DNA of 64,000 nt from Candidatus Omnitrophota bacterium (GTDB taxonomy: Bacteria > Omnitrophota > Gorgyraeia > Zapsychrales > Fredricksoniimonadaceae). Each line of letters begins with the position of its first letter. Position 1 is the stretch's first letter. Positions 1,744 to 58,561 of this stretch are shown here, one piece after another. Both the position numbers and the translations under genes were made by a program. A model generated the notes under the pieces. It ran no database searches. It had not been told where the DNA came from and worked only from the letters and a program-made list of their open reading frames with translations. The DNA is taken from the NCBI GenBank assembly GCA_013286575.1, contig JABDFL010000001.1, positions 9,905 to 73,904 of the forward strand, in the 5' to 3' direction.

Positions 1744-4668
1744 ATGTATTTTATGATGAGAAATTTTGGTATTGGTTTTTTGGTGTTCTGTTTTGTTTTT
1801 TCCAGCGTTAATTTGGGCCTGGCGGCCCAGGTCGTAGAAGTCCCGCCCATCATTGTCGAGCCTTCCTATAATTTAAGTGAAATAAACGAGCAGATGCTTG
1901 AGCAGGACAGGATAAACCGGGACCAGGAATTAGCGATCAAAGGCCTTGCCGAGCAAAACCAGAGTCTCGCCCAGACAGCCCAACAGGACAGCACTCTTGA
2001 TCAAATCAACCAAACCATGCTTAATTACCGCAATGCGCTTTTAGAACGCGACCGCGCCCGTATCATGGCCAATGGCCTGAGGGCTTCCCGGTACGATGAT
2101 CTGATCGCCTTGACTGAAGATGTCGACGGCATGAAAGGCGTCGGCCCGACCTTACAGCTTAAAAGTGACCTGATCGAACAGAAATATAAAATCCTCATGG
2201 ACCTTAAAAATGAGATGGTCGTCCTGAATAAAAAGCTCGAAGAAGAAGCGCTGCATAAGCATTCTGAAAACATAAACCAGGAACAAGCACAAAAAATCCT
2301 GTTCCTCACCCAAAGATTGGCTGAATTGGACCAAAGGGTCTCCCGTTACGACGAGATCTTGGCCGAAAAAGACCAGCAGATCGCCCAATTGAAATTTAGT
2401 TTAGCCGGGGCCCGAAAAGAGGCCGCGGGTAAAGATATCCAGTTAGGCCAATTGAGGCTGCAGTTGTCCCAAACACAGACCCAGGTGGGTTTATTAAAAT
2501 CAGAACTTGAGAACAGGATCGCCCGAGAGAATAATCAGGACCAGGAGAGCTCTGCCCAAAAAGCCCAAGTGGACCAATTGAAAATGCAGTTGTCCCAAAA
2601 ACAGGCCCAGGTGGATTTATTAAAATCAGAACTTGAGAATAAGATCACCGAAGAGAATAATCAAGGCCAAGAGGCTTCCGCCAAAGATGAGATGGTCAAA
2701 CAGCAGCGCGATCAGATAACTGTTTTGAAGGCACAGGCGCAGGAATTATCTTCTAAAGAAGAGCTGATGCAATCACAGGCAGACCAAATGGCCAAGGAAT
2801 TAGGATTATACAAGGACCAGGGCACGGCGTATGCCAGCCTGCAGGCCGAGTTTATGGCTTTAAAAAATAAAATCAGCAGCCAGGCCGTTGATTTAAAAAT
2901 CAAGAATGAATCCATCCGCTGGTTAAACCAGGTCCTGGCCGTTACCAAAAACAAGGCGGAATATTATAGGTTGACTGCCCAGCAGGACCGCATGACGATG
3001 CGGCAAGTCCAGGATGCAGTGCTGAAGGTCAAGGATGATTTTACCCGGCATTTTAAGGATTACGATCAATTTGAAAATGCCATTATTTCCTTAAAGGAGC
3101 AGGTGGGCCGTATGGGCGGGTTATTATCCCAAAAGCAGGAGCAGGTGGAACTGTTAACACAGTCACAGCAGGAGCTAAAGGCCCAGCTTCGGGAAAAAGA
3201 AAATCAAATAGACGATCGCATCAGCTTGGCCAAACATTTGATCGCCCTGCAGCAGCAGGAAGCATCTTTATTGCAGGAGAAAGGCAGCCTCGAGGCAAGT
3301 CAAAACGACCTTTTTGACAGGCATTTCCTTGATCTTGAGAAGAAAATCAAGGGCTTGGCTGCCAATCACCAACTTCAGGCCATGGATCTGCAAAGCCGTA
3401 TGGAAGAATTGAGAGAAGAACTTGAGCTTAAAGAGCAGCAGGGGAAGTCGCTCAGGACAGAATTAGAAAATAAGATTGCCGACGAGAAAAACCAAAGCGT
3501 GCTGGCCTCCCAGATCCAGGATTTGGAAGCCCAGCTCCAGGATAAGGAAAACCAGATCAGCGCCATGAAAACGGAAATCCAGTCAGGCCGGGAGACACAA
3601 GACCAAACAGACACCCTGAGGCAGCAATTGGCGGACCAGCAGAATAAAGCGGATGTACTAAAGCAGGAGCTAGACAGTAAGAATGCCCAATCCGACAAAA
3701 TGACCCTGATGATCTCCGATTATCAGCAAAAACTGGAGTCCAAGGACAATGCCTATAATGAAGAATTGCAGCAGGTGCTGGATTCCAAAAATGCCCAGGC
3801 CCAGATGGAAGGGCAGATCGTTGATTTAAATGCCCGGCTGCAGCAAAAAGAGGCGCAGATCGTCGAGATTAAAAAGAACTTGTACGATTTACAGCAATCA
3901 ATGGGGGCCAGGGACAGGGAGTCCCAAACCCATGATCTAAGCCTTTCCATAATGCAGCAGAAAATGCTGGATGGGAAGATCAATGAATATCAGGACAAAA
4001 TAAATGGATTGCAGGCAACCAATGACAGGCAGGCAGGGCAGGTGGCAAAACTTAAAGCTGATTTGGCACTGGCCCGCCAGCAGCTGGTCGGCGGCATGCC
4101 CAGCAGCGACGAGATTGATTTCCTGAGGGCAGGGCTTAATAAGGCCGCCCTGCAGTTAAAGCAAAAAGATGCGATGCTTTTACAAATCAAGGCCAATGCC
4201 GATGAGTATGAAAAAGAATTCAAGGAGCAGACCCAGGAATTTTTAAGCTTAAAGGAGCAGTTGCAAAATGCCCTGGATAAAATCAGCCGCAAGGATGAAG
4301 ACCTGACATACAAAAACATGGAAATAATCCGCCTCAAAGAGCGTTCCCATAATTTGGGGAATGGTGATTTGCAAAACCAGGTGAGGGTATTGACCCGGAA
4401 GCTTGAGGCTGCCGAGAAAAGACTCCGCAGTAAAACCTATGGGGGCGGGAAAGCAGGGATACTGGAAGGCCAGTTAGAGGACGCCAACGAACAGATCAAA
4501 GAGCTCCATGCCCAGTTAAATGAGTTCATCCTACCTGCCAAAAGCGATGCCCTTAGGGAAAAATTAAAACAGGCTTTGGATAAAGTTGATCAACAGGGAC
4601 ATATGATCAATGTCTTGGTCCAGAAATTGCAGGACGCCGGGAAGAGTGTCAATCTCAGCCAACTGTAG
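1744..4668 (+). CDS. Very large secreted or membrane-anchored coiled-coil protein (974 aa).
   Basis: N-terminal hydrophobic signal or TM segment (FGIGFLVFCFVFSSVNLGLAAQ). The rest is rich in Q/E/K/L heptad-like sequence with repeated LKSELENKI and QLQ motifs. No enzymatic domain recognised. Confidence 0.7.
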   Translation: MYFMMRNFGIGFLVFCFVFSSVNLGLAAQVVEVPPIIVEPSYNLSEINEQMLEQDRINRDQELAIKGLAEQNQSLAQTAQQDSTLDQINQTMLNYRNALLERDRARIMANGLRASRYDDLIALTEDVDGMKGVGPTLQLKSDLIEQKYKILMDLKNEMVVLNKKLEEEALHKHSENINQEQAQKILFLTQRLAELDQRVSRYDEILAEKDQQIAQLKFSLAGARKEAAGKDIQLGQLRLQLSQTQTQVGLLKSELENRIARENNQDQESSAQKAQVDQLKMQLSQKQAQVDLLKSELENKITEENNQGQEASAKDEMVKQQRDQITVLKAQAQELSSKEELMQSQADQMAKELGLYKDQGTAYASLQAEFMALKNKISSQAVDLKIKNESIRWLNQVLAVTKNKAEYYRLTAQQDRMTMRQVQDAVLKVKDDFTRHFKDYDQFENAIISLKEQVGRMGGLLSQKQEQVELLTQSQQELKAQLREKENQIDDRISLAKHLIALQQQEASLLQEKGSLEASQNDLFDRHFLDLEKKIKGLAANHQLQAMDLQSRMEELREELELKEQQGKSLRTELENKIADEKNQSVLASQIQDLEAQLQDKENQISAMKTEIQSGRETQDQTDTLRQQLADQQNKADVLKQELDSKNAQSDKMTLMISDYQQKLESKDNAYNEELQQVLDSKNAQAQMEGQIVDLNARLQQKEAQIVEIKKNLYDLQQSMGARDRESQTHDLSLSIMQQKMLDGKINEYQDKINGLQATNDRQAGQVAKLKADLALARQQLVGGMPSSDEIDFLRAGLNKAALQLKQKDAMLLQIKANADEYEKEFKEQTQEFLSLKEQLQNALDKISRKDEDLTYKNMEIIRLKERSHNLGNGDLQNQVRVLTRKLEAAEKRLRSKTYGGGKAGILEGQLEDANEQIKELHAQLNEFILPAKSDALREKLKQALDKVDQQGHMINVLVQKLQDAGKSVNLSQL
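2461..2706 (+). repeat. Intragenic tandem duplication of about 2 x 123 bp (about 85% identity) inside the coiled-coil gene.
   Basis: cagttgtcccaaa.acag.cccaggtgg.tttattaaaatcagaacttgagaa... occurs at 2461 and again at 2587. The protein repeats are LSQTQTQVGLLKSELENRIARENNQDQESSAQK and LSQKQAQVDLLKSELENKITEENNQGQEASAK. Confidence 0.7.
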
Positions 4669-11416: not shown

Positions 11417-11490
11417 GGGGTTGTAGCTCAGTTTGGGAGAGCGCCTGCATGGCATGCAGGAGGTCAGGGGTTCAATCCCCCTCAACTCCA
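11417..11490 (+). tRNA. tRNA-Ala (anticodon GGC).
   Basis: Cloverleaf by eye: acceptor GGGGTTG/CAACTCC with the G3:U70 Ala identity pair, anticodon loop ATGGCAT, T-loop TTCAATC. CCA is not encoded. Confidence 0.85.
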
Positions 11491-11499
11491 CTTATTTTT

Positions 11500-11586
11500 G
11501 CCAAGGTGGCGGAACTGGTATACGCGCTGGTCTCAAAAACCAGTGGTCTCACGGCCGTGAGGGTTCAACTCCCTCCCTTGGCACCA
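11500..11586 (+). tRNA. tRNA-Leu (anticodon CAA), class II with a long variable arm.
   Basis: Acceptor GCCAAGG/CCTTGGC, anticodon loop CTCAAAA, long variable arm, T-loop TTCAACT, 3' CCA encoded. Confidence 0.85.
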
Positions 11587-28950: not shown

Positions 28951-29655
28951 ATGCAGAAATTAGAGAAAATATACGAAGGCAAGGCGAAGATCCTTTATAC
29001 GACCGGGGACCCTGACTTGCTCATCCAGTATTTCAAGGATGATGCAACGGCCTTCAATGCCCAGAAGCGAGGTACCATTGTTGAAAAGGGCATCATGAAC
29101 AATGGCATCGCCTCCAAGATCTTTGAGCACCTCAAAGCCAAAGGCATTGAGACCCATTTCGTTGAAAGGTTAAACGACCGCGAGATGTTGGTCAAGCGTG
29201 TCCAAATCGTCCCGCTTGAGATCATTGTCCGCAATCGCGCGGCAGGTTCTTTATGCCGCCTGCTGGGACTGGCTGAAGGGGCCAATTTAGCCTGCCCGAC
29301 GCTGGAATTTTGCTATAAGAATGACGCCTTGGGCGATCCGCAGGTCAATGAATACCATATCCGGGCGTTGAATTTTGCCACTGATGATGAGGTGAAGAAG
29401 ATCACCGCCTTGGCCTTCAAGATCAATGAGGTATTAAAGAAATTCTTTCTGGGTTTAAAGATTGAATTGATCGATTTCAAAATAGAATTCGGCCGCATCA
29501 ACAATCATATTATCCTGGCTGATGAAATCTCTCCTGACACCTGCCGTTTATGGGAAGTCGGTACGGGCAATAAGCTGGACAAAGACCGTTTCCGTCGGGA
29601 TCTGGGTAATATCGAAGAGGCCTATCAGGAAGTATTACGCAGAGTTTCCGCATGA
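28951..29655 (+). CDS. purC: Phosphoribosylaminoimidazole-succinocarboxamide (SAICAR) synthase.
   Basis: 234 aa: YEGKAKILY, LIDFKIEFG. Confidence 0.9.
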   Translation: MQKLEKIYEGKAKILYTTGDPDLLIQYFKDDATAFNAQKRGTIVEKGIMNNGIASKIFEHLKAKGIETHFVERLNDREMLVKRVQIVPLEIIVRNRAAGSLCRLLGLAEGANLACPTLEFCYKNDALGDPQVNEYHIRALNFATDDEVKKITALAFKINEVLKKFFLGLKIELIDFKIEFGRINNHIILADEISPDTCRLWEVGTGNKLDKDRFRRDLGNIEEAYQEVLRRVSA

Positions 29656-32561
29656 TCTGGCGCGTTGAAGTTAAACAAAAAGATGGGATGCTGGATCCCA
29701 TTGGACAATCCATTGCCCGAGACATCATTGATATGGGCTTTGGCATCTCCCAGGTGCGTGTCGTCTCGGTTTTTCTGCTGGAAGGCACCATCAGCCGCGA
29801 GGAAGTCAAGCGCATCGGCGATGAACTCCTGGTTGATCCTATCGTTGAGCAATACAGTTTTGATTTAAAACTCCCCCTGCAGTCAGTTGACCATCATGTC
29901 GTTGAAATAGCTTATAATCCCGGTGTCATGGACCCTGTGGAAGCCTCCACGATCAAGGGCATCCGCGATTTGGGTGTCGCAGGCATCAGTGCTGTGCGCA
30001 CCGCCCGGCAATACCATATTTACGGCAGACTGACAGCCAAAGAATTGGAATCCATCACTGCCCGCGTCTTGATGAATAAACTCATCCAGCACGTGGTAGC
30101 TGACCCTTCCCATGTCCCGACCACACTCAGTATCACGGGTGCATCCGCGTCCAAATTTGATGTGATGATCGTGGATTTGATCGGTGCCAATGATAAAAAA
30201 CTTCTCGAAATTTCCAAGAGCGGCCAGCTCTATTTAAATATTGATGAGATGAAGGCCATCCAGGCCCATTTTAAAAAAGAAAAACGTGATCCGACGGACG
30301 TTGAATTAGAAACCATTGCCCAGACCTGGAGCGAGCATTGCCGCCATAAGACTTTCAGGGGTGTTATCCGTTACCGGGAAGGCAAAAGCGGACGGCCCCA
30401 AATTATCCGCAGCCTTTTTAAAACCACCATTGCTGCCGTTACGTTGAAATTAAAGAAAAAATGGTGCATTTCAGTTTTTCATGACAATGCCGGGGTCATC
30501 GCTTTTGATAAAGATTATCATGTGTGTTTTAAAGTGGAGACCCATAATCATCCCTCAGCCCTGGAGCCTTTTGGCGGGGCCAACACGGGAGTGGGTGGCG
30601 TTATCCGTGATACTTTGGGGACCGGGCTTGCTGCCAAGCCTTTGTGCAATACCGACATATTTTGTTTTGCGCCGCCGGACACACCGGCAGCAGACTTGCC
30701 GCCCGGCACCCTGCATCCCAAGCGGGTCATGAAAGGCGTTGTTTCAGGGGTGCGTGATTACGGCAACAAGATGGGCATCCCGACGGTCAATGGGGCCATT
30801 GTTTTTGATAAACATTTTGCAGGCAATCCGCTGGTTTTTTGCGGCAATATCGGGCTCATCCCCAAAGGTAAAGAAATTAAACGTGTCAGCAGGGGGGATT
30901 TGATCGTGGCTGTGGGCGGACGCACCGGGCGCGACGGCATTCACGGCGCCACGTTTTCTTCGGGAGAGCTGACCAGTGAATCGGAAACAGTTTCTTCAGG
31001 CGCCGTGCAGATCGGCAATCCCATTGAAGAGAAAAAAGTACAGGATGCCCTGCTTAAAGCGCGCGAGGCCAATTTGTATTCTGCCATCACTGATTGCGGC
31101 GCCGGCGGGTTTTCTTCTGCCGTCGGAGAAATGGGCGAAAAGACAGGGGCACGGGTTGATTTGGATAAGGCCCCTCTTAAATATCAGGGCCTTAAATACC
31201 ACGAGATTTGGATTTCAGAATCACAGGAGCGGATGGTGATGTCTGTCCCTCCTCAAAACATCGAAGCCCTTCTTAAGATTTTTGAGGCAGAGAATGTGGA
31301 GGCGAGTGTTTTAGGTGAATTCGACGGCTCCGGCCGCCTGCAACTGTTTTTCCACGGCCAGCAAGTTGCTGACATGGACATGTCCTTTCTCCATGATGGC
31401 CTGCCTCAAATAACCAAGGAAGCTGTTTATCAAAAGCCCAAACTCCGTGTCATTCCCGCGAAAGCAGGAATCCATACAAGATACCGCCCTGGACAGGATT
31501 TAACCGAAAGCTTATGCATGGCCTTAAGCCATTTTAATGTGGCTTCCAAGGAAAGTATTATTCGCATTTATGATCACGAGGTGCAGGGAACAAGCGTTGT
31601 CAAGCCACTGGTAGGGGTTGCCACCGACGGACCATCAGATGCGGCGGTGATCCGCGGGCGTTTGGATTCCAAGCGCGGCATCGCGGTTTCCAACGGCATT
31701 AATGTGCGCTACGGCATGATCGATCCTTTTGGGATGGCTGCTTCCTGCATTGATGAAGCGATCCGTCAAATCATCGCGGTGGGAGGTTCGCTGGATCGCA
31801 TCGCCCTTCTTGATAATTTTTGCTGGGGAAACCCTGATAAGCCCGATCGTCTGGGGTCTTTGGTGCGCTGTGCCCAAGGCTGTTATAAAGCGGCCGTGGC
31901 TTTCGGCACTCCGTTTATTTCGGGGAAAGATAGTTTATATAATGAGTATACCCAAAAAGGTAAAAGCCTCGCGATACCGGGGACCATATTGATCTCCGCC
32001 ATCGGCATCATCGATGATGTGGGAAAAAGCGTCACCATGGATTTTAAAAAGGCGGGGAACAGTATTTATGCGATCGGCACAACCTTTGACGAACTGGGCG
32101 GGTCTGTCTATTTGGAAAATTTAGGGCAGTTGGGGCTTCATGCACCGCAGGTCAATTTTAAGATGGCAGTTAAAACATATAAGGCTGTAGAACGCGCAAC
32201 CAAGGCGGGTTTGATCGCCTCGTTACACGATTGCTCGGAAGGCGGTGCCGCGGTCGCTCTGGCGGAAATGGCCTTTGCCGGCGGATTGGGCGCCACGGTT
32301 TTATCAAAGAAATTGCCCTATAAGGGAAAGCAGGGACGGGAAGATATTTTGCTTTTTTCGGAAAGCAATTCACGCTTCATTGCTGAAGTCTCAGCTGGTC
32401 ATGAAAAAGCGCTGGCAAAGATTTTCAAAGGCGTTCCCATGGCCCGGATCGGCACGGTTGAGGCAAGCCCGGAATTTGTCGTCTACGGTCTTCATGACCA
32501 GCCGGTCATCAATGCCCGTATCGATGAATTAAAAGAAATCTGGAAGGCACCGTTGAGATAA
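29652..32561 (+). CDS. purL: Phosphoribosylformylglycinamidine synthase subunit PurL with an N-terminal PurS-like extension (probable PurS-PurL fusion).
   Basis: 969 aa, against about 740 for a small PurL. The first ~80 aa resemble PurS (VEVKQKDGMLDPIGQSIARDI...). The PurL core starts near WSEHCRHKTF. No separate purS gene is seen between purC and purQ. Confidence 0.8.
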   Translation: MIWRVEVKQKDGMLDPIGQSIARDIIDMGFGISQVRVVSVFLLEGTISREEVKRIGDELLVDPIVEQYSFDLKLPLQSVDHHVVEIAYNPGVMDPVEASTIKGIRDLGVAGISAVRTARQYHIYGRLTAKELESITARVLMNKLIQHVVADPSHVPTTLSITGASASKFDVMIVDLIGANDKKLLEISKSGQLYLNIDEMKAIQAHFKKEKRDPTDVELETIAQTWSEHCRHKTFRGVIRYREGKSGRPQIIRSLFKTTIAAVTLKLKKKWCISVFHDNAGVIAFDKDYHVCFKVETHNHPSALEPFGGANTGVGGVIRDTLGTGLAAKPLCNTDIFCFAPPDTPAADLPPGTLHPKRVMKGVVSGVRDYGNKMGIPTVNGAIVFDKHFAGNPLVFCGNIGLIPKGKEIKRVSRGDLIVAVGGRTGRDGIHGATFSSGELTSESETVSSGAVQIGNPIEEKKVQDALLKAREANLYSAITDCGAGGFSSAVGEMGEKTGARVDLDKAPLKYQGLKYHEIWISESQERMVMSVPPQNIEALLKIFEAENVEASVLGEFDGSGRLQLFFHGQQVADMDMSFLHDGLPQITKEAVYQKPKLRVIPAKAGIHTRYRPGQDLTESLCMALSHFNVASKESIIRIYDHEVQGTSVVKPLVGVATDGPSDAAVIRGRLDSKRGIAVSNGINVRYGMIDPFGMAASCIDEAIRQIIAVGGSLDRIALLDNFCWGNPDKPDRLGSLVRCAQGCYKAAVAFGTPFISGKDSLYNEYTQKGKSLAIPGTILISAIGIIDDVGKSVTMDFKKAGNSIYAIGTTFDELGGSVYLENLGQLGLHAPQVNFKMAVKTYKAVERATKAGLIASLHDCSEGGAAVALAEMAFAGGLGATVLSKKLPYKGKQGREDILLFSESNSRFIAEVSAGHEKALAKIFKGVPMARIGTVEASPEFVVYGLHDQPVINARIDELKEIWKAPLR

Positions 32562-50065: not shown

Positions 50066-50740
50066 ATGGCCGATAGAAAACTTTTAGATAATGGGCAGAT
50101 CGCGCAGGTGATTAAACGGCTGAAGGTCGCGATGCGGGATTTACCGGACCCTTCGGTGACCCTGGTCGGCAAGAAATTCAAAAGCCCGTTTTTGGTGCTG
50201 ATTTCCTGTTTGTTGAGCCTGCGCACCCGTGATGAGACGACCTTGCCGGCCAGCGAACGCCTGTTTGCCCGCGCGGCTACGATGCAGGGGATGCTGGATA
50301 TTCCCGTTGCTGATATTCAAAAATTGATTTATCCGGTAGGTTTCTATAAAACCAAGGCCTTGCGTATCCATGATATTTGTACGGATTTGATCCATCGTTT
50401 CGGGGGAAAGGTCCCGGACGATTTGGAACAGCTTTTAACGCTCAAAGGGGTAGGGCGCAAAACCGCGAACCTGGTATTGACCGAAGGTTTCGGCAAGCCG
50501 GGCATCTGTGTCGATACCCATGTGCACCGGATTTCCAATCGCCTGGGGTATGTCAAAACCAGGACACCTGATGAGACGGAATTCGCTTTAAGGGAAAAAT
50601 TGCCCCGCAGGTATTGGATTGAATACAATGCCCTGCTGGTGACCTGGGGCCAGAATGTTTGTAAACCCATTTCACCGGTCTGTTCCGCTTGCCCGGTGGA
50701 AAGAATTTGCCGACGCGTCAAGGTCGGCATCAGCCGCTAA
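50066..50740 (+). CDS. nth: Endonuclease III-like HhH-GPD DNA glycosylase with a 4Fe-4S cluster.
   Basis: 224 aa: LKGVGRKTANLVL, C-terminal CKPISPVCSACPVERIC. Confidence 0.8.
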   Translation: MADRKLLDNGQIAQVIKRLKVAMRDLPDPSVTLVGKKFKSPFLVLISCLLSLRTRDETTLPASERLFARAATMQGMLDIPVADIQKLIYPVGFYKTKALRIHDICTDLIHRFGGKVPDDLEQLLTLKGVGRKTANLVLTEGFGKPGICVDTHVHRISNRLGYVKTRTPDETEFALREKLPRRYWIEYNALLVTWGQNVCKPISPVCSACPVERICRRVKVGISR

Positions 50741-50742
50741 AT

Positions 50743-52032
50743 ATGAAACTATTTCTTTATTTTTCACAAGTCATCGGTTTGGACATCATGGATGCCCAAG
50801 GGCAGTGGATCGGCCGTTTGCACGATATCGCCATGAACCCTTACGCGGACATTTATCCCAAAGCCAGCGACTTGATCATTCGACGGGGATCATCCTCCAA
50901 GGAATATGCCCGGGTCAATTGGGAAGATATTGTCTATATTGAAAATAATATCCGCCTTAAGATCATGGGTGACCGGCTTAAATTTTCCAAAGAAATACCT
51001 AGATCTGATTTTACCCTGCGCCGCGACATCTTTGACCAGCAGGTGGTGGATATCGATGACCAGCGTGTGGTGCGGGTCAATGATATCCATTTGCTGCGGG
51101 TGGAAAACCAGCTTTATGCCGCGCATGTGGATGTGGGTTTAAGGGGCATTTTCCGGCGTTTGGGATGGACGGGGATGGTTGACCTTATCGTGTTTCTTAT
51201 CAATTCCAAATCACCCTATTTGACCAATGAAGAATTGATCCCCTGGAAAGCCACCCAGGTCCTGCCGAAACTGGGGCGCATGAAAAGCGTCTTAAAGCTG
51301 GAAGTTGCCAAAAATAAATTGGGCAGCATCCCGCCGGCTGCCTTGGCGGACATCATCCAGGGCCTGGACATTTTTGTCCGGGTGTCCATGTTTAAATCAA
51401 TGGAAAGCGCATTGCAAAATAAAGTTTTTACGGACATGACCCTGACCTGTAAAGCAGAGCTGGTGGAACAGCTGAGCGAGGCAGAGTCAGCCAACTTGAT
51501 CACCAATATCCCGGCGGATGAGGCCACCGACCTGCTGATGAAATTGCCGCGTGAAAAAGCCCATCATCTGATGGGGCTGCTGGGCTCGGAAACCAATAAA
51601 AAATTACGCAAACTTTTGGGCTACGCCAAAGATTCCGCCGGTGGGCTGATGACCACGGAGTACCTTTATTTAAAGGCCGATGCGACGGTGGCTGACGCGT
51701 TTAATAAAATAAGGGAAAATATCAATTTCCCCGGCACCATTTTCTTTTTTTATATCGTTGATGACGATCACAAATACCTGGGCACGACGTCCCTGCGGCG
51801 TTTTTTCAATGAAAATCCCCAGACTCTTTTGATCGACATCTGTTATCCGGAAAATATCCATGTGTATACGGATGACAGCGTTGAGCAGGTCGCCCTGCTT
51901 TTGGAGCGTTACAAATCTTCTTCCATCCCCGTTCTCAACCACCAGGACATTTTGCAGGGCATTATCACCATCGACGACGTTATGGAAGAATTGATTTCTT
52001 TGGTATGGCATAAATATAAAGAGAAATTATGA
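50743..52032 (+). CDS. Soluble MgtE-N plus tandem-CBS domain protein with N-terminal PRC-barrel-like repeats and no transmembrane domain.
   Basis: ATG at 50743. MgtE_N-like region ADEATDLLMKLPREKAHHLMGLLGSETNKKL. The CBS pair ends IITIDDVMEEL. There are no hydrophobic helices. Its stop overlaps the NRAMP start. Confidence 0.7.
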   Translation: MKLFLYFSQVIGLDIMDAQGQWIGRLHDIAMNPYADIYPKASDLIIRRGSSSKEYARVNWEDIVYIENNIRLKIMGDRLKFSKEIPRSDFTLRRDIFDQQVVDIDDQRVVRVNDIHLLRVENQLYAAHVDVGLRGIFRRLGWTGMVDLIVFLINSKSPYLTNEELIPWKATQVLPKLGRMKSVLKLEVAKNKLGSIPPAALADIIQGLDIFVRVSMFKSMESALQNKVFTDMTLTCKAELVEQLSEAESANLITNIPADEATDLLMKLPREKAHHLMGLLGSETNKKLRKLLGYAKDSAGGLMTTEYLYLKADATVADAFNKIRENINFPGTIFFFYIVDDDHKYLGTTSLRRFFNENPQTLLIDICYPENIHVYTDDSVEQVALLLERYKSSSIPVLNHQDILQGIITIDDVMEELISLVWHKYKEKL

Positions 52033-53297
52033 GTTTCTGGGAAAAAGCAAAAAAAAATAAGGTTTTGAAAAACACCCTGTTCTTTTTGGCCATGCTTGGG
52101 CCGGGCGTTATTACCGGCAGCGTGGATAATGACGCCGGCGGCATCACCACGTATTCGGTGGCCGCAGCCACCTACGGCTATCCTATTCTCTGGACACTTT
52201 TGCCCTCATTCATTGTTTTGCTGGTGGTGCAGGAAATGAACATGAGGATGGGGGCCTGCACCGGCAAGGGCCTGGCAGACCTGATCCGGGAGAACTTTGG
52301 CGTTAAAGTCACTTTTTGGATATTTTTAGGCTTGCTTGTAGCAGACATCGGCAATACAGCCACGGAATTTGCCGGGGTGGCGGGCAGTATGAATATTTTC
52401 GGCATCAGCAAATATATTTCCGTGCCCGTGACAGCAGGGGCTGTTTGGATTTTGGTGACCAAGGGCAATTATAAGATTTCCGAGCGCATTTTCTTAATGT
52501 TTAGCGTGGCCCTTTTGTCCTATATCGTTTCCGCCCTGGCGGCCAAGCCGGACTGGCACCAGGTGGGCCTCGCCTTTATCCATCCGCAGATACAATACGA
52601 TAAAGACTATCTGATCATGGTGCTGGGCATCGTCGGTACGACCATTGCCCCCTGGATGCAGTTTTATATGCAGTCCGCGGTCATTGAAAAAGGGACGACC
52701 ATGGAAGATTATAAACTGGCCCTGGCGGATGTCGTCATCGGATGTGTGGCGACGGTGGCCGTGGCTATTTTTATCATGGTCGCCTGTGCTGCCACCCTGC
52801 ATGTGAATAATATTACGATCAATGAAGCCAAGGACGCGGCCTTGGCACTCAAGCCTTTTGCCGGGGCTTTGGCCTCCGCGGTTTTTGCTTTCGGACTTTT
52901 TGTTGCCTCCATATTTTCCGCGACCATCCTGCCTTTGGCCACGGCCTTTTATATTTGCGAAGCCTTTGGCTTTAATGCCGGCATTGATAAACGTGTCGAG
53001 GAGGCCCCGCAATTTTACACGCTTTTTGCCGCCATCCTCATCATCGCCTGCGTCATTATTTTGATCCCTAATGCGCCTTTGATCGCCATCACCTTATGGA
53101 CCCAGGACATCAATGCCATGCTTCTGCCGGTGGTCCTGATTTCCATGCAGTTGATGGTCAATAATCCGGAAATTATGGGGGAACATGTTAACAATAAATT
53201 CCAAAATGCCGTCGGCTGGTCCACGACGGTCATTTTAATCACCCTCACCCTTTTACTGATGGTTTTACCTGCCTTTGATCTTTTCAAAGCCCACTAA
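52029..53297 (+). CDS. mntH: NRAMP-family divalent metal (Mn2+/Fe2+) transporter.
   Basis: 422 aa, about 11 TM segments. NRAMP signature LGPGVITGSVDNDAGGITTYS and MNM motif. Confidence 0.85.
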   Translation: MSFWEKAKKNKVLKNTLFFLAMLGPGVITGSVDNDAGGITTYSVAAATYGYPILWTLLPSFIVLLVVQEMNMRMGACTGKGLADLIRENFGVKVTFWIFLGLLVADIGNTATEFAGVAGSMNIFGISKYISVPVTAGAVWILVTKGNYKISERIFLMFSVALLSYIVSALAAKPDWHQVGLAFIHPQIQYDKDYLIMVLGIVGTTIAPWMQFYMQSAVIEKGTTMEDYKLALADVVIGCVATVAVAIFIMVACAATLHVNNITINEAKDAALALKPFAGALASAVFAFGLFVASIFSATILPLATAFYICEAFGFNAGIDKRVEEAPQFYTLFAAILIIACVIILIPNAPLIAITLWTQDINAMLLPVVLISMQLMVNNPEIMGEHVNNKFQNAVGWSTTVILITLTLLLMVLPAFDLFKAH

Positions 53298-53411
53298 AAA
53301 TTTTTATGGCATTTTGGCGGATTTTTGGTAAATTGTAGGCTTAATTCTTTATATAGATACTTTGGGAAGCTATGTAATTATTTTGAAACTAATGTTTATT
53401 AAACCTGAAAT

Positions 53412-54428
53412 ATGAGTAAAATAATAGGGATTACATATGATTTAAAGGGCGATTGGCAGGGGGCTTCGGATGACCCTGTTGACGCGGCGGCTGAGCTCGA
53501 CGGGCATAAGACGATCGAATGCCTTAAAGCTGCCCTGGAATCGGCCGGGCATAAGGTGGTTTTAATCGGCGGTGCGCGCCAATTGATCAGCCGCGTGACG
53601 GGCGGAGATTTAAAGGTCGATATTGTCTTTAATATTTCCGAAGGCTTTAAAGGCCGCAACCGCGAATCCCAGGTGCCTGCTATTTTGGATTTATACAATA
53701 TTCCTTTTGTCGGTGCTGATGCGTTGACCTTAGGCGTTACTTTAGATAAGGTAGTGGCTAAAAAATGTTTCATCGCTGAAGGGATACCGACAGCACGTTA
53801 TTTTAAGGCCACGCTTGAAGATAATTTGTTTGCATTGAACACGATCGGTTTTCCTTTGTTCGTCAAGACCCTGCACGAGGGCACGTCCAAAGGGATCACC
53901 CAGGCATCAAGGGTCGCGGATTTTGAACAGCTTAAGGCCCAGGTTGAGCATATCAACCGTAATTATAAGCAGCCGGCGCTGGTCGAGGAGTTTATTAAGG
54001 GCACTGAGTTTACCGTCGGCGTTATCGGTAATAATCCGCCGGTCGCCATGCCGGTGGTGCAGTATGCGATTGCGGGCAAGACGGCTTTAGGCAATGAATT
54101 TTATTCGTACCGCCACGTGGCTGAAAAGCTGGTGGAGCATATTTGCCCGGCGCCTATTGATGAGAAATTAGCGAAGAACCTTCAAGAATTAGCGGTGCGC
54201 GCATACAAATCTGTTGATTGCCGTGATTTCGGGCGTGTGGATTTTCGCGTGGATGAAGCGGGCAAGCCTTATGTCCTGGAAATCAACCCGTTGCCGAATT
54301 TAAGTCCGGACGATGTGTTCGTTCTCTTTGGTAAAGTTTTAAAGATGTCGTACAATCAGATCATTAATAAAATCATGGATGAAGCCCTCTTGCGTTTGGG
54401 GCTTATGGAAGGAAGTTTGCAAAAATGA
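53412..54428 (+). CDS. ATP-grasp ligase of the D-alanine--D-alanine ligase family.
   Basis: 338 aa: HKVVLIGGA, ILDLYNIPFVGADALTLGVTLDKVVAKK, FVKTLHEGTSKGI, RVDFRVDEAGKPYVLEINPLP. Confidence 0.7.
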   Translation: MSKIIGITYDLKGDWQGASDDPVDAAAELDGHKTIECLKAALESAGHKVVLIGGARQLISRVTGGDLKVDIVFNISEGFKGRNRESQVPAILDLYNIPFVGADALTLGVTLDKVVAKKCFIAEGIPTARYFKATLEDNLFALNTIGFPLFVKTLHEGTSKGITQASRVADFEQLKAQVEHINRNYKQPALVEEFIKGTEFTVGVIGNNPPVAMPVVQYAIAGKTALGNEFYSYRHVAEKLVEHICPAPIDEKLAKNLQELAVRAYKSVDCRDFGRVDFRVDEAGKPYVLEINPLPNLSPDDVFVLFGKVLKMSYNQIINKIMDEALLRLGLMEGSLQK

Positions 54429-55612
54429 GCCCTGTGACCACAGTGATCAAAGAAGAGACAGCCTCATCTTCCGGCGGGCCCAACATTCCGTTGTCACCTG
54501 CGGAACAACGCGTCATCAAACTTTTTCCGGGCGCGACATTAGCGGATTGGGAAGATTGGCGCTGGCAGATCAGAAACCGTATCCGCACGCTTGACCAGAT
54601 CACCAAGCTGATGAAACTGACCCCGCACGAAGAGCGCGGGGTCAAAGGGGCAGGGGACAAACTGACCATGTCCATCCCGCCGTATTTTGCCGCCTTGATC
54701 GATGAGAATGATCCCGGATGCCCTATCCGTTTGCAATCAGTCCCGTTGGATTATGAATTTGAGACGACCCCTGAAGAAATGCTCGACCCTTGCGGTGAAG
54801 ACAAGAATTCCGCCGTGCATGGCCTGGTGCACCGCTATCCTGACCGCGTGCTTTTTTTAGTCAATGAGATGTGTGCCATGTACTGCCGTTATTGCACGCG
54901 CTCACGCATGGTGGGTGACGGCAACCACACGCTTAATACCTCCACCTATGACGCGGCGCTCAATTATATCCGTGAGCATAAAGAGATCCGCGATGTGCTG
55001 ATTTCCGGCGGGGACCCTTTGACCCTGGGCGACCGTATGCTGGAATATTTGATTTCTTCCGTCAAAGCCATCCCGCATGTGGAATTTGTGCGTATCGGCA
55101 CACGCATCCCCGTGACCCTGCCCCAGCGGATCACGCCGGAGCTGATCGCCATGTTTAAGAAATATTCGCCCCTTTGGATGAGCGTTCATTTTAACCATGC
55201 CAGGGAAGTGACCCCGCGCGTCAAGCATGCCTGCAACATGCTCGCTGATGCCGGCATTCCCATGGGCAGCCAGACGGTGCTCTTGCGCGGCGTTAATGAT
55301 TCGCCGGAAGTCATGAAAAAACTTTTCCATGAACTTTTGAAGATCAGGGTCAGGCCTTATTACATTTATCAATGTGACCCCATCGTCGGCTCCAGGCATT
55401 TTCGCACCAGTGTTGAGACGGGTATTAATATCATCCAGAACCTGCGGGGGCATACCACCGGCTACGCGGTGCCGACCTATGTGATCGACGGGCCCGGCGG
55501 CGGCGGTAAAATCCCCGTTAATCCGGATTATTTGGTTTCCAAAGAAAATGGCCGTTATACGTTGCGTAATTACGCGGGAGAATTATATACCTACGTCGAC
55601 CCAACCTATTAA
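54425..55612 (+). CDS. Lysine 2,3-aminomutase family radical SAM enzyme (KamA/EpmB-like).
   Basis: 395 aa: CAMYCRYCTRS cluster motif, ISGGDPL, and a KamA-like C-terminal region. Its start overlaps the ATP-grasp stop by 4 nt. Confidence 0.8.
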   Translation: MSPVTTVIKEETASSSGGPNIPLSPAEQRVIKLFPGATLADWEDWRWQIRNRIRTLDQITKLMKLTPHEERGVKGAGDKLTMSIPPYFAALIDENDPGCPIRLQSVPLDYEFETTPEEMLDPCGEDKNSAVHGLVHRYPDRVLFLVNEMCAMYCRYCTRSRMVGDGNHTLNTSTYDAALNYIREHKEIRDVLISGGDPLTLGDRMLEYLISSVKAIPHVEFVRIGTRIPVTLPQRITPELIAMFKKYSPLWMSVHFNHAREVTPRVKHACNMLADAGIPMGSQTVLLRGVNDSPEVMKKLFHELLKIRVRPYYIYQCDPIVGSRHFRTSVETGINIIQNLRGHTTGYAVPTYVIDGPGGGGKIPVNPDYLVSKENGRYTLRNYAGELYTYVDPTY

Positions 55613-55675: not shown

Positions 55676-58561
55676 TTGGGGAGAAATATCGTGAACGGAC
55701 ATCCGTTTAAAGCCTCTATTTTTGTTTTTTTTATGTGTCTGGCAATTCTCACGGGTGGTATTAAGTCCTTTGCCCAAGACGATAATTCTGATGAGAATAC
55801 CCAGGAGACATTAAACCAGATCCATGATTTGGAAGTAAAGTTACAGCAAGCCAATAAGTCGCTGGATGCAGCCCAACAGTCTGGGAATCAATCGGATACA
55901 GAAACAGCAGTTACACAGGCCCCTGTAGCACAAGCATCCCCTCAACAAGCAGCTCCTGAGCAGGCAGACGACTCTGCGCCGTCTTCTTCAGACCAGACTA
56001 CTTCGACTTCTCCGGCCCAAACAGCGCCGGATAGGACCGTATCCATTAACACAACTTTAAATTCGCTCGAGGTAAACTCAGCTCAAACTGCGTCCACTAC
56101 TTCGGTTCCAACTACTACGCCCACCCCGACACAGACTGTTCCGTCTGCTCCAGTACAAACTGTTCCGCCTGCTCCGGCTTCTTCAAACCAAACTGCCTCA
56201 TCTACCGGCAATACTCTAAAAATCAGCGGGGAAGTGCGTGCTTCCATGGGAGTTTACTCTAGCGGAAATGCGGTGTTTACCCGGGCCAACGCGGACCTTA
56301 ATGAAAAGAATTACCGGTTGGTATCGGATAATGCTTTAAACAATGACATCAATACCTATGACCCTGCTCTCTATTCCCGTTTGAAGGTCGTGATGGATGC
56401 ATCTGTCGCATCTGCGGTGGTATCTGTGCACTTGAATGTGAGCGTGGACCCATGGAGTTTTACGGGAAAAACCAAGACCCAGCTAGTCACCACCCCATAC
56501 GGAGATACCGTTAAGGTCCAATATTTGACTTGGGGAAATACGGGGTATACTGTTAACTCTACTTTTAATACCATGAGGTTTGCTAATGGGATTGAAGTGC
56601 CTGAAATAAAAACAAACGGTAATATGGTGCCGGCGACAACAGTACCTAATGTTGACACGTATTATCAAGACGGCGACACATTCAATCTCCCTGCCGCGAA
56701 AATAGACTATTCTTTTTTTCCTTTTAGGGAAGCGTGGGTCGATGTCAAACCTACCGATGAATTAAAGTTACGCATTTTTCCGATGGGCTTTGAAGACCAG
56801 GCTTTAAGTACGGACGACCCTTTAAAACTTTCCAATAGCACAGAGTGGTGGGCGGAAAGCCCATGGCTTGATGGCTGGCAGCAGGGTAATCTTAACACCG
56901 GGCTCACACCGGTGAGTTTTACAAAAGGTCAATGGGACAAGAGTTTGTCGTTCTTTACTAAGGACAGCGACGGGGTGCGTTTGACCGCCTTGCGCGGTGT
57001 TTCCCTGGATTGGAAGCCGGGGGATGAGACATCTTGGGATACCACCATCGCCAGCCCCAAAACCCTTTGGCAGGATTACGGGGACATTACGGCCCTGGCC
57101 GGGAGCTCGCGGTTAAAGCAGGATATCGGCGATTCTTTTTATATAGGCGCCTTGGGGAACATGCACCAGGGTTTTGACTTAGACAATCAGATAGATGCTG
57201 AAAATTATACCGGCGGTGTTGATTCCGGGGCCATGCTCCTTAAAAACCTGAAACTCAATGCTGAATACGCTGAATCCAAAAGCATCTATGATGAAACTTC
57301 CCCTGAGTATTCCACTCAATATGGCGGCAATGCCTACTTTGTATCGCTCACCACCGCTTCCAACCCTGAGGATGAGGACATCCTCAAGAAAGATTATTTC
57401 GGCTTGCTGCCTGTCGAGAAAACAGAGGATTTTTATAAGAGTACGATTTATTTTGCCAGGATGGATGAAGGCTTCGAGTCGAGCCTGTCTGATTATCACG
57501 AAACCCGCAGCGATAGTTTCTGGGCGGATAACCTGACTTTTTATCCTTCGGATTACCGTTATATGCCGGGCATCGGCCCCACCCTGTCCGAAAATGATCT
57601 GGATCCTTTTGCCATCGGTAACGGCATTGATTACGGGCGTTCGGTCATCAACTGGCGGGGAGATGTGAATTTGATGGACGGGAAACTTCAAGGGCTTGCG
57701 GCCATACGGCATGTCACGGACCATAATGGCAATAATGTGGAAACCGCCTCCCGCCTTGGAATGACATATCAGGTCACGGATAAACTTACCACCAAGGCCC
57801 TATTATTATGGGACGCCTTGCCTAATACAACGGCAGGGATAGATCCTTTTCAGGTGTATGATCCGACTGGCGTAAACTATAATAATGACGCGGTCCCGGG
57901 CGGAAAAGACCCCAGCTTGAAAACCGGCTCTTTGGGCGCCCGTTATCAGTTGACTGATTGGGCCGCCATTAATGGTGTCTGGAAATATACCAATGATTTT
58001 GTCGAAGGCACCAATGAATTCCCGCAAACGGTCATGGATAGTATTAGTACCGCGCCGAGTTTTCAAAATGGCCAGAATTACCGCCAGTATTTCCCCTTTA
58101 TATATGATCAGAGCTACTTTGAGCAGGCACCCTATCCCTATTATAATATTTTTAAAACAGGCTTGGAGTTGACCCCCAGCGAAAAATGGCATCTTTATCT
58201 GGACTATACCCGTAACCCCAACAGGTTCGCCGGGAATTTCGACGACAATATGAACCACGAAGGCATTGAAGCCAGTTATGTGCCGACCCCCAAGATAGGT
58301 TTTTTCGCGAGCACTGTATTTTCCCAGGGTTATGATGTCAACCGTTTAGTCAATGATAATGAGCTGGATTATCGGGACTATATTAATTTCTTTTTTGAAA
58401 TGCGCATGATCCTGCCCAAAGACCTGATGATGTCAATCCAGTACGGTGTGGGCCCATCCTACGATATCCAAACTTCCACCACCACTCCTAACCTGACATA
58501 TTCTTCCACTGTCCTTGAAACCCAGCACCTTGTCCGCATCGTCTTTGATAAGAAGTTCTAG
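55676..58561 (+). CDS. Large outer-membrane-type protein (961 aa) with a signal peptide, a long T/S/P/Q/A-rich linker and a probable C-terminal beta-barrel.
   Basis: ORF track start is the TTG at 55676. A GTG at 55691 preceded by GGGGAGA is the more likely start. The low-complexity region spans residues ~60-190. It ends with an aromatic-rich ...VFDKKF typical of OMP barrels. Confidence 0.55.
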   Translation: MGRNIVNGHPFKASIFVFFMCLAILTGGIKSFAQDDNSDENTQETLNQIHDLEVKLQQANKSLDAAQQSGNQSDTETAVTQAPVAQASPQQAAPEQADDSAPSSSDQTTSTSPAQTAPDRTVSINTTLNSLEVNSAQTASTTSVPTTTPTPTQTVPSAPVQTVPPAPASSNQTASSTGNTLKISGEVRASMGVYSSGNAVFTRANADLNEKNYRLVSDNALNNDINTYDPALYSRLKVVMDASVASAVVSVHLNVSVDPWSFTGKTKTQLVTTPYGDTVKVQYLTWGNTGYTVNSTFNTMRFANGIEVPEIKTNGNMVPATTVPNVDTYYQDGDTFNLPAAKIDYSFFPFREAWVDVKPTDELKLRIFPMGFEDQALSTDDPLKLSNSTEWWAESPWLDGWQQGNLNTGLTPVSFTKGQWDKSLSFFTKDSDGVRLTALRGVSLDWKPGDETSWDTTIASPKTLWQDYGDITALAGSSRLKQDIGDSFYIGALGNMHQGFDLDNQIDAENYTGGVDSGAMLLKNLKLNAEYAESKSIYDETSPEYSTQYGGNAYFVSLTTASNPEDEDILKKDYFGLLPVEKTEDFYKSTIYFARMDEGFESSLSDYHETRSDSFWADNLTFYPSDYRYMPGIGPTLSENDLDPFAIGNGIDYGRSVINWRGDVNLMDGKLQGLAAIRHVTDHNGNNVETASRLGMTYQVTDKLTTKALLLWDALPNTTAGIDPFQVYDPTGVNYNNDAVPGGKDPSLKTGSLGARYQLTDWAAINGVWKYTNDFVEGTNEFPQTVMDSISTAPSFQNGQNYRQYFPFIYDQSYFEQAPYPYYNIFKTGLELTPSEKWHLYLDYTRNPNRFAGNFDDNMNHEGIEASYVPTPKIGFFASTVFSQGYDVNRLVNDNELDYRDYINFFFEMRMILPKDLMMSIQYGVGPSYDIQTSTTTPNLTYSSTVLETQHLVRIVFDKKF

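Follow-up and report, generated by a model that had tools for sequence, protein, structure and literature searches.

In a 64,000-nucleotide stretch of the genome of a Candidatus Omnitrophota bacterium (assembly GCA_013286575.1, contig JABDFL010000001.1, positions 9,905 to 73,904 of the forward strand; hereafter the window, meaning this whole stretch), we analysed two overlapping genes that encode an ATP-grasp protein resembling D-alanine-D-alanine ligase (Ddl) and a radical S-adenosylmethionine (SAM) protein of the KamA type. We refer to these genes as A and K, and the features around them are collected in Table 1. The original prediction, made from the DNA letters alone, had described an ATP-grasp gene of the D-Ala-D-Ala ligase family whose stop overlaps by 4 nt the start of a KamA-like radical SAM gene encoding the motif CAMYCRYCTRS, preceded by an A/T-rich spacer. 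Each of these elements was borne out. Domain matches agree with both family assignments, the motif is present in the second protein, the overlap is an ATGA, and the spacer (114 nt) has a G+C content of 25.4%, against 48.3% for the window. The Shine-Dalgarno-like sequence stands 9 nt ahead of the KamA start, and the G+C content of the ligase gene (48.1%) is below that of the KamA gene (53.5%). Among related loci, 44 of 77 have a 4-nt overlap as the possible junction, the most frequent type, in an estimate that takes the start nearest the upstream stop and is thus biased towards short distances.

Table 1. Features of the ATP-grasp/KamA locus, in window coordinates
Feature	Coordinates	Strand	Basis or remark
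A/T-rich intergenic spacer, presumed promoter region	53298..53411	.	GC content
Ddl-like ATP-grasp ligase, 'A' type, 338 aa	53412..54428	+	Pfam Dala_Dala_lig_C 2.6e-33
Shine-Dalgarno-like GGAAGGAAG in 3' end of ATP-grasp gene	54407..54415	+	sequence read directly
ATGA stop/start overlap (translational coupling)	54425..54428	+	sequence read directly
KamA/AblA-type lysine 2,3-aminomutase, short form, 395 aa	54425..55612	+	Pfam Radical_SAM + LAM_C
961-aa open reading frame	55676..58561	+	likelier start GTG at 55691, behind GGGGAG
rpsU, ribosomal protein S21, 53 aa	58639..58800	+	below ORF-listing length

A consensus scan of the + strand of the spacer gave no sigma-70-like site, and promoter and terminator counts around the pair were not above those in shuffled sequence. 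We also considered a riboswitch or leader RNA before the pair, and rejected this: at Rfam gathering thresholds, the window and five related loci yielded tRNAs and a tmRNA, with no riboswitch or leader RNA. The sole Rfam matches in the window are two neighbouring tRNA genes at 11417-11490 and 11500-11583 (+).

The pairing of the two genes is conserved across the phylum. When 185,579 species genomes were scanned with a profile, 80 loci were recovered, almost all of them from Omnitrophota, and at every locus that extends far enough (76 of 76) a KamA gene lies downstream of the ligase gene on the same strand; six more loci end before that site. Most relatives carry two paralogous ligases, the second of which, B, has its catalytic residues intact, and the lineage of the window represents a reduced form with a single ligase. 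Among the sequences classified, the order A-K was assigned to 33, including the window and two near-duplicate loci, and the order A-B-K to 45, with 5 more that are truncated. In addition, the two activities are joined in fusion proteins encoded by continuous open reading frames, once as ATP-grasp-KamA (P0167, 695 aa) and once as KamA-ATP-grasp (P0214, 746 aa). We regard these two fusions, one per gene order, as independent. Given the same-strand linkage at all 76 loci together with the fusion proteins, the adjacency of A and KamA is far beyond chance. Both fusions contain a ligase of the A type, which is the type found in the window, an indication that the KamA product is used directly by A.

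Other phyla contain the same genes in other orders. With P0214 as the seed, a scan of metagenomes recovered clusters in the order K-A-B, and in 13 of the loci a gene for a GNAT-family protein of approximately 165 aa comes next. A profile of this GNAT then led to complete K-A-B-GNAT operons in cultured Prolixibacter (GET29642-45 and GET23512-15), and metagenome-assembled genomes of Calditrichaceae and KSB1 contain K-A-B-HDAC-GNAT operons, in which HDAC denotes a protein of the histone deacetylase family. A further order among the loci of this module is K-(GNAT/HDAC)-A-B-GNAT. Within K-A-B-GNAT clusters at three loci (L101, 7223-8962; L123, 7242-8990; L124, 7112-8884) lies a gene for a 579-590-aa protein, which has a weak N-terminal GNAT-like region and a strongly matching histone-deacetylase-family domain (2.7e-73), and which no NCBIfam model matches. 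At another locus (L087), a K-A fusion is followed by an overlapping gene for an MFS transporter, and then by another ligase. That the linkage spans four or more phyla, takes several gene orders and includes fusions is strong evidence for a shared pathway. As a separate observation, L004, L006, L010 and about 25 other loci from the profile scan of species genomes are titled 'uncultured Planctomycetales' (binchicken assemblies), yet have the gene order of loci titled Omnitrophota and share 55-85% protein identity with them. These titles are probably a coarse or wrong taxonomic label.

The KamA protein of the window is highly similar to lysine 2,3-aminomutase (LAM). Its match to the C. subterminale enzyme (2A5H; 1.3e-138) extends over residues 30-393 with approximately 60% identity, and it lies above the cut-off of the general KamA family model (TIGR00238; 363.1 bits, cut-off 199.2). 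Of the NCBIfam models, the AblA equivalog of lysine 2,3-aminomutase (TIGR03820) gives the highest score, 512.9 bits, just below the cut-off of 525.4. Only positions 3-362 of the 417 in this model are matched, and the shortfall arises because the C-terminal tail is missing from the protein. Scores are also below the cut-offs for the glutamate 2,3-aminomutase equivalog (452.3 bits, cut-off 650), the arginine 2,3-aminomutase model (420 bits, cut-off 600) and the EpmB equivalog (251.8 bits, cut-off 369.3).

The residues expected to recognize lysine are retained. In 2A5H numbering, the window's protein keeps C125/C129/C132 of the CxxxCxxC motif as well as R134, D293, D330 and K337. We take the last four, from the 2A5H structure, to be the contacts of the carboxylate (R134), of the epsilon-amine (D293 and D330) and of pyridoxal phosphate (PLP), which engages the alpha-amine (K337). 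Among 98 ligase-linked KamAs, the CxxxCxxC motif and R134 are found in all 98, D293 in 95, D330 in 96 and K337 in 97. In glutamate 2,3-aminomutase the lysine-binding Asp pair is replaced by Lys/Asn, as Ruzicka and Frey are said to have reported in 2007; unlike this pattern, both Asp residues are present in the window's protein. The differences from LAM lie elsewhere. The window's protein ends approximately 45 residues earlier than the 2A5H enzyme, and among the ligase-linked KamAs the tail past residue 368 is at most 11 aa long, and nearly always free of Cys, in all complete sequences but four. None of them has Cys at the position of Cys268, where R, S, D, K or N is found instead. Cys268 and the C-terminal cysteines form the inter-subunit zinc site of LAM, and this site is missing from the short KamA. 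A further difference from LAM is that the short KamA is always partnered with a Ddl-like ligase. Between relatives, KamA is conserved far more than the ligase (for example, 96% versus 86% identity for locus L003). These patterns point to a distinct clade of short KamAs that should still bind free L-lysine. Because the lysine-recognition residues are conserved, the predicted product from free L-lysine is beta-lysine, and the suggestion in the original prediction that a KamA-type enzyme would supply beta-lysine thus appears sound.

The AblA equivalog is also the starting point of an alternative explanation, namely that KamA belongs to an osmolyte pathway of the AblA/AblB type, or to lysine fermentation, and that the ATP-grasp gene is an unrelated neighbour. 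In methanogens, AblA and AblB are encoded by a two-gene operon that produces N-epsilon-acetyl-beta-lysine. The resemblance is that both systems would combine a KamA-type enzyme with an enzyme that acylates or otherwise derivatizes beta-lysine, in a two-gene operon yielding a small solute, and the versions in Bacteroidota, Calditrichota and KSB1 do include a GNAT. However, the partner of KamA in the module is an ATP-grasp ligase rather than a GNAT; the GNAT of Prolixibacter is additional to two ligases; and the GNATs of these other phyla match rimI weakly and match no AblB model at E <= 1e-5. Neither the window nor the Omnitrophota loci have a GNAT, and the lysine fermentation genes kamDE, kdd, kce and kal are not adjacent. 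Moreover, some genomes encode the ligase and KamA as a single fused protein, and the ligase is thus no unrelated neighbour. We thus consider this explanation very unlikely.

The identity of the ligase required more detailed comparison, since all of its neighbours in sequence and structure are Ddl enzymes. The AlphaFold2 model of the A ligase is of high predicted confidence (predicted local distance difference test score 93.8), and the top Foldseek matches of this model are Ddl structures, with template modelling (TM) scores of 0.72-0.78 at 19-24% identity. The shared fold is accompanied by shared ATP/Mg and catalytic residues: the equivalents of E. coli DdlB K97, K144, E180, E187, R255, D257, E270 and N272 do not vary within the family, whether in A or in B, and an acyl-phosphate mechanism would be expected, as in Ddl. 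(In the DdlB reference sequence used for this alignment, the expected residue stands at 19 of 19 checked positions.) The substrate pocket, in contrast, is altered. DdlB H63 corresponds to an invariant Glu (E77) in the alignment of the A-ligase family, E68 aligns with Arg, and S281 corresponds to D301, a position that is Asp in 20 of 30 family members and Asp or Glu in the Omnitrophota ligases. K215, Y216 and L282 fall in variable columns, and K215 and Y216 are lost in A. The family also has a signature of its own, VFNIAEGxxGRNRESQVP. It is large, with 889 representatives in an exhaustive search of representatives (50% identity clustering, E <= 1e-30), among which are many tandem double-ligase proteins.

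One could nevertheless suppose that A is an ordinary D-Ala-D-Ala ligase that happens to lie next to KamA. Its nearest solved structures and its nearest sequence models are all of Ddl, and no other Ddl is encoded within the 64-kb window. Yet A stands apart from bona fide Ddl. None of the NCBIfam Ddl cut-offs is reached: the best score is 164.6 bits against the 243 needed for the broadest Ddl model (NF002378), and the distance to the cut-off is larger still for every other Ddl model. In addition, H63, K215, Y216, S281 and L282, the residues with which Ddl binds D-Ala, are replaced. The invariable linkage to KamA, the fusions and the two tandem copies in many genomes are likewise difficult to reconcile with a coincidental neighbour, and the dcw/mur context of Ddl is lacking, so we regard this possibility as extremely improbable. 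From its residue pattern, A is predicted to be an active enzyme with a substrate pair other than that of Ddl, and not a housekeeping Ddl. The acidic replacements in its pocket would suit substrates with an extra amino group. Current annotation does not make this distinction. Neither A nor B nor the cluster GNAT has a named model in NCBIfam, and the genes appear in RefSeq and GenBank as 'D-alanine--D-alanine ligase family protein', 'ATP-grasp domain-containing protein' or 'hypothetical protein'.

We favour, with moderate confidence, the reading that the pair is a two-step operon that would convert lysine to beta-lysine, and beta-lysine to an ATP-dependent amide that is a small metabolite. In the first step, the radical SAM/PLP enzyme KamA would turn free L-lysine into beta-lysine (3,6-diaminohexanoate). 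In the second, the A ligase would spend ATP on an acyl-phosphate, after which an amide bond incorporating beta-lysine would be made. The chemistry of the family and the acidic replacements in the substrate pockets make it likeliest that the carboxylate of beta-lysine is activated and is attacked by an amine partner with a further cationic group, for which a second lysine, beta-lysine or a polyamine are candidates. The product would thus be a small soluble beta-lysine amide or peptide, such as an isopeptide or a beta-lysyl-polyamine, and not D-Ala-D-Ala. The B ligase, in most relatives, might add a further bond, while in Bacteroidota, Calditrichota and KSB1 the GNAT may acetylate, and the HDAC deacetylate, an amine of the intermediate or product; the lineage of the window would retain only the minimal core of A and K. 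We prefer a small metabolite to a protein tag because of the MFS (L087), GNAT (at least 13 loci) and deacetylase (several loci) partners. The ATP-dependent ligation of beta-lysine put forward in the original prediction is thus supported as gene logic, and the outcomes of both checks that it had named, on conservation of the neighbourhood and on grouping with bona fide Ddl, agree with it. We infer both reactions, the ligation chemistry and the product from the observed gene anatomy, conservation, fusions and residue patterns.

The two reactions could in principle also occur in the reverse order, with the ATP-grasp enzyme making a lysine-containing peptide in which the KamA-like enzyme then isomerizes the lysyl residue. 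The ATP-grasp gene does precede KamA in Omnitrophota, and the occurrence of the ligase family without KamA means that it can act on a substrate other than beta-lysine. However, K comes first in the gene order of other phyla. In addition, the conserved R134, D293/D330 and K337 would contact the free carboxylate, the epsilon-amine and, via PLP, the alpha-amine, so that no functional group of lysine would be left for a peptide bond. This order of reactions is therefore, in our estimation, highly doubtful.

Several observations weigh against the proposed two-step pathway to a small metabolite. First, the amino or carboxyl group that is joined cannot be read from the sequence. Second, the same ATP-grasp family occurs in Myxococcota, Bacillota and Elusimicrobia in contexts that are not beside KamA. 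A Myxococcota-type contig (L083, 8001-12484), for example, encodes a tandem double ligase of 618 aa, with genes for a GNAT and an amidohydrolase after it, and in Bacillota (L084, 6545-9056) a single ligase lies behind an M28 peptidase. We had considered KamA linkage as a property of the whole ATP-grasp family, and rejected this because no KamA is nearby in these three contexts. The unlinked members carry the invariant residues of the family too, so these residues may bind a substrate other than beta-lysine, and the family as a whole need not be specific for beta-lysine. (It was also seen that a hydrolase, of the M20, M28, amidohydrolase or HDAC type, accompanies the Ddl-like family in several phyla.) Third, neither the window nor the Omnitrophota loci have a transporter, GNAT or deacetylase close to the pair; a GNAT or HDAC beside the Omnitrophota pair was specifically sought, and none was found. 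Fourth, the module lies within a housekeeping and translation block, a placement that also fits a role in modifying a macromolecule. The co-oriented block in Omnitrophota comprises PfkB, Era, Nth, (MgtE_N/CBS, NRAMP), A, (B), K, rpsU or an EF-G-like/YchF-C gene, PurH, FolC and MnmE. Its conservation implies vertical inheritance and a core role of the module, and says little on its chemistry.

The last two of these points lead to an explanation in which the ATP-grasp enzyme links the beta-lysine from KamA to a protein or a peptidoglycan precursor. In the case of a protein, it could be a non-orthologous replacement of EpmA that acts on elongation factor P (EF-P), or on another component of translation; in the case of peptidoglycan, it could resemble the ATP-grasp D-aspartate ligase of Enterococcus. 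Protein modification by ATP-grasp enzymes has precedents (RimK, LysX and TTL), the nearest fold of the ligase is that of a cell-wall enzyme, and the module is vertically conserved across Omnitrophota near rpsU, an EF-G-like gene and a YchF-C gene, with neither transporter nor GNAT. On the other hand, the aminomutase is of the KamA/AblA type (512.9 bits) and not of the EpmB type, for which it is well below the cut-off (251.8 versus 369.3 bits). The window has no EF-P loop motif, and E. coli EF-P as a tblastn query had no match in the window or in 82 loci, which were searched here rather than whole genomes; likewise, mur/dcw genes are not adjacent. In other phyla the module is accompanied by GNAT, HDAC and MFS proteins, which are typical of small-molecule pathways, and a single lysylation needs no two sequential ligases. 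We thus consider modification of a macromolecule rather unlikely in general. For the Omnitrophota ATP-grasp in particular, a protein or cell-wall beta-lysyl ligase, whether replacing EpmA on EF-P or a translation component or acting on peptidoglycan, would explain the placement in a translation block with neither transporter nor acetyltransferase, and we judge it unlikely.

The proposed route from lysine through beta-lysine to an amide has counterparts in several known systems, none of which it matches fully. In pyrrolysine biosynthesis, the radical SAM lysine mutase PylB acts before the Ddl-like ATP-grasp enzyme PylC, which links the rearranged amino acid to an amine of lysine. The module likewise combines a radical SAM lysine mutase with a Ddl-like ATP-grasp enzyme, but the likeness is one of logic only: PylB is neither a KamA-family nor a PLP enzyme, no PylB or PylD domains were found in the neighbourhood of the module, and PylC is absent from the best 60 of the 108 PDB matches of the family profile. 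The Ngg system makes N-acetylglutaminylglutamine amide, in which a GNAT and an ATP-grasp peptide ligase produce a small N-acetylated dipeptide solute. The K-A-B-GNAT clusters also combine an acetyltransferase with ATP-grasp ligases and may likewise yield such a solute; Ngg differs in that its ATP-grasp enzyme belongs to another clade, its substrates are glutamine, and no aminomutase is involved. In the EpmA/EpmB system, as proposed here, the beta-lysine used by an ATP-dependent ligase comes from an enzyme of the KamA family. However, EpmB belongs to another, shorter clade, EpmA is a paralogue of lysyl-tRNA synthetase and not an ATP-grasp enzyme, and no efp gene lies near the module. A similar combination of enzymes is described for blasticidin S in passages of PMC11641026 (citing Cone et al. 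2003), in which the product of a KamA-family enzyme (BlsG, an arginine 2,3-aminomutase) is amide-linked by an ATP-grasp enzyme. The parallel thus lies in a KamA-family beta-amino acid that is amide-linked to an amine. That system, however, belongs to an actinomycete antibiotic cluster with nucleoside chemistry and an arginine substrate, whereas the present module belongs to the core genome of an entire phylum, and the lysine model gives the highest score for its KamA.

Directly downstream of the pair lies a gene for a 961-aa protein with a signal-peptide-like N-terminus and a low-complexity stretch rich in Q, A, P, S and T. The original prediction was correct that this gene follows the pair, but a role in the same system does not hold up. 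In close relatives rpsU comes directly after KamA, and only in this genome does the 961-aa gene sit between them. The outer-membrane type that the original prediction gave this protein is putative, the signal-peptide-like N-terminus being the one feature in line with it. The protein has no Pfam or NCBIfam match and no homologue among approximately 120 related loci, and it shows no similarity to the other open reading frames of approximately 970 aa in the window (1744-4668 and 29652-32561). We therefore rejected it as a member of the system. Upstream of the spacer, a gene for a PRC-barrel/MgtE_N/CBS protein (50689-52032, +) overlaps by 4 nt a gene for an NRAMP transporter (52029-53297, +). Several Omnitrophota loci have this second pair upstream of the ligase as well. 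Pfam reports no MgtE membrane domain in the MgtE_N/CBS protein, which may be a cytosolic Mg- or metal-sensing module that is re-used with another transporter.

To our knowledge, few fates of beta-lysine have been described, namely fermentation, N-epsilon-acetyl-beta-lysine, EF-P lysylation and some actinomycete antibiotics. The original prediction had not recognized the pair as part of a described pathway, and our search agrees with this impression, as no curated family model or paper that we found describes the module; the ATP-grasp amidoligase survey of Iyer et al. 2009 was outside the reach of our literature search. The module is a combination of known enzyme families that is undescribed and widely conserved. 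It can be defined compactly as a KamA-type aminomutase with one or two Ddl-like ligases and, optionally, a GNAT, a deacetylase and an MFS transporter, and it is kept in every Omnitrophota locus recovered as well as in Bacteroidota, Calditrichota and KSB1. Its presence in cultured Prolixibacter denitrificans makes the question directly testable, in that organism or by heterologous expression. If our interpretation is true, it would provide a first function for a large Ddl-like family and would caution against labelling the A and B genes as cell-wall ddl. It would also mean that a new beta-lysine-derived metabolite or modification is core to a poorly understood, uncultured phylum.

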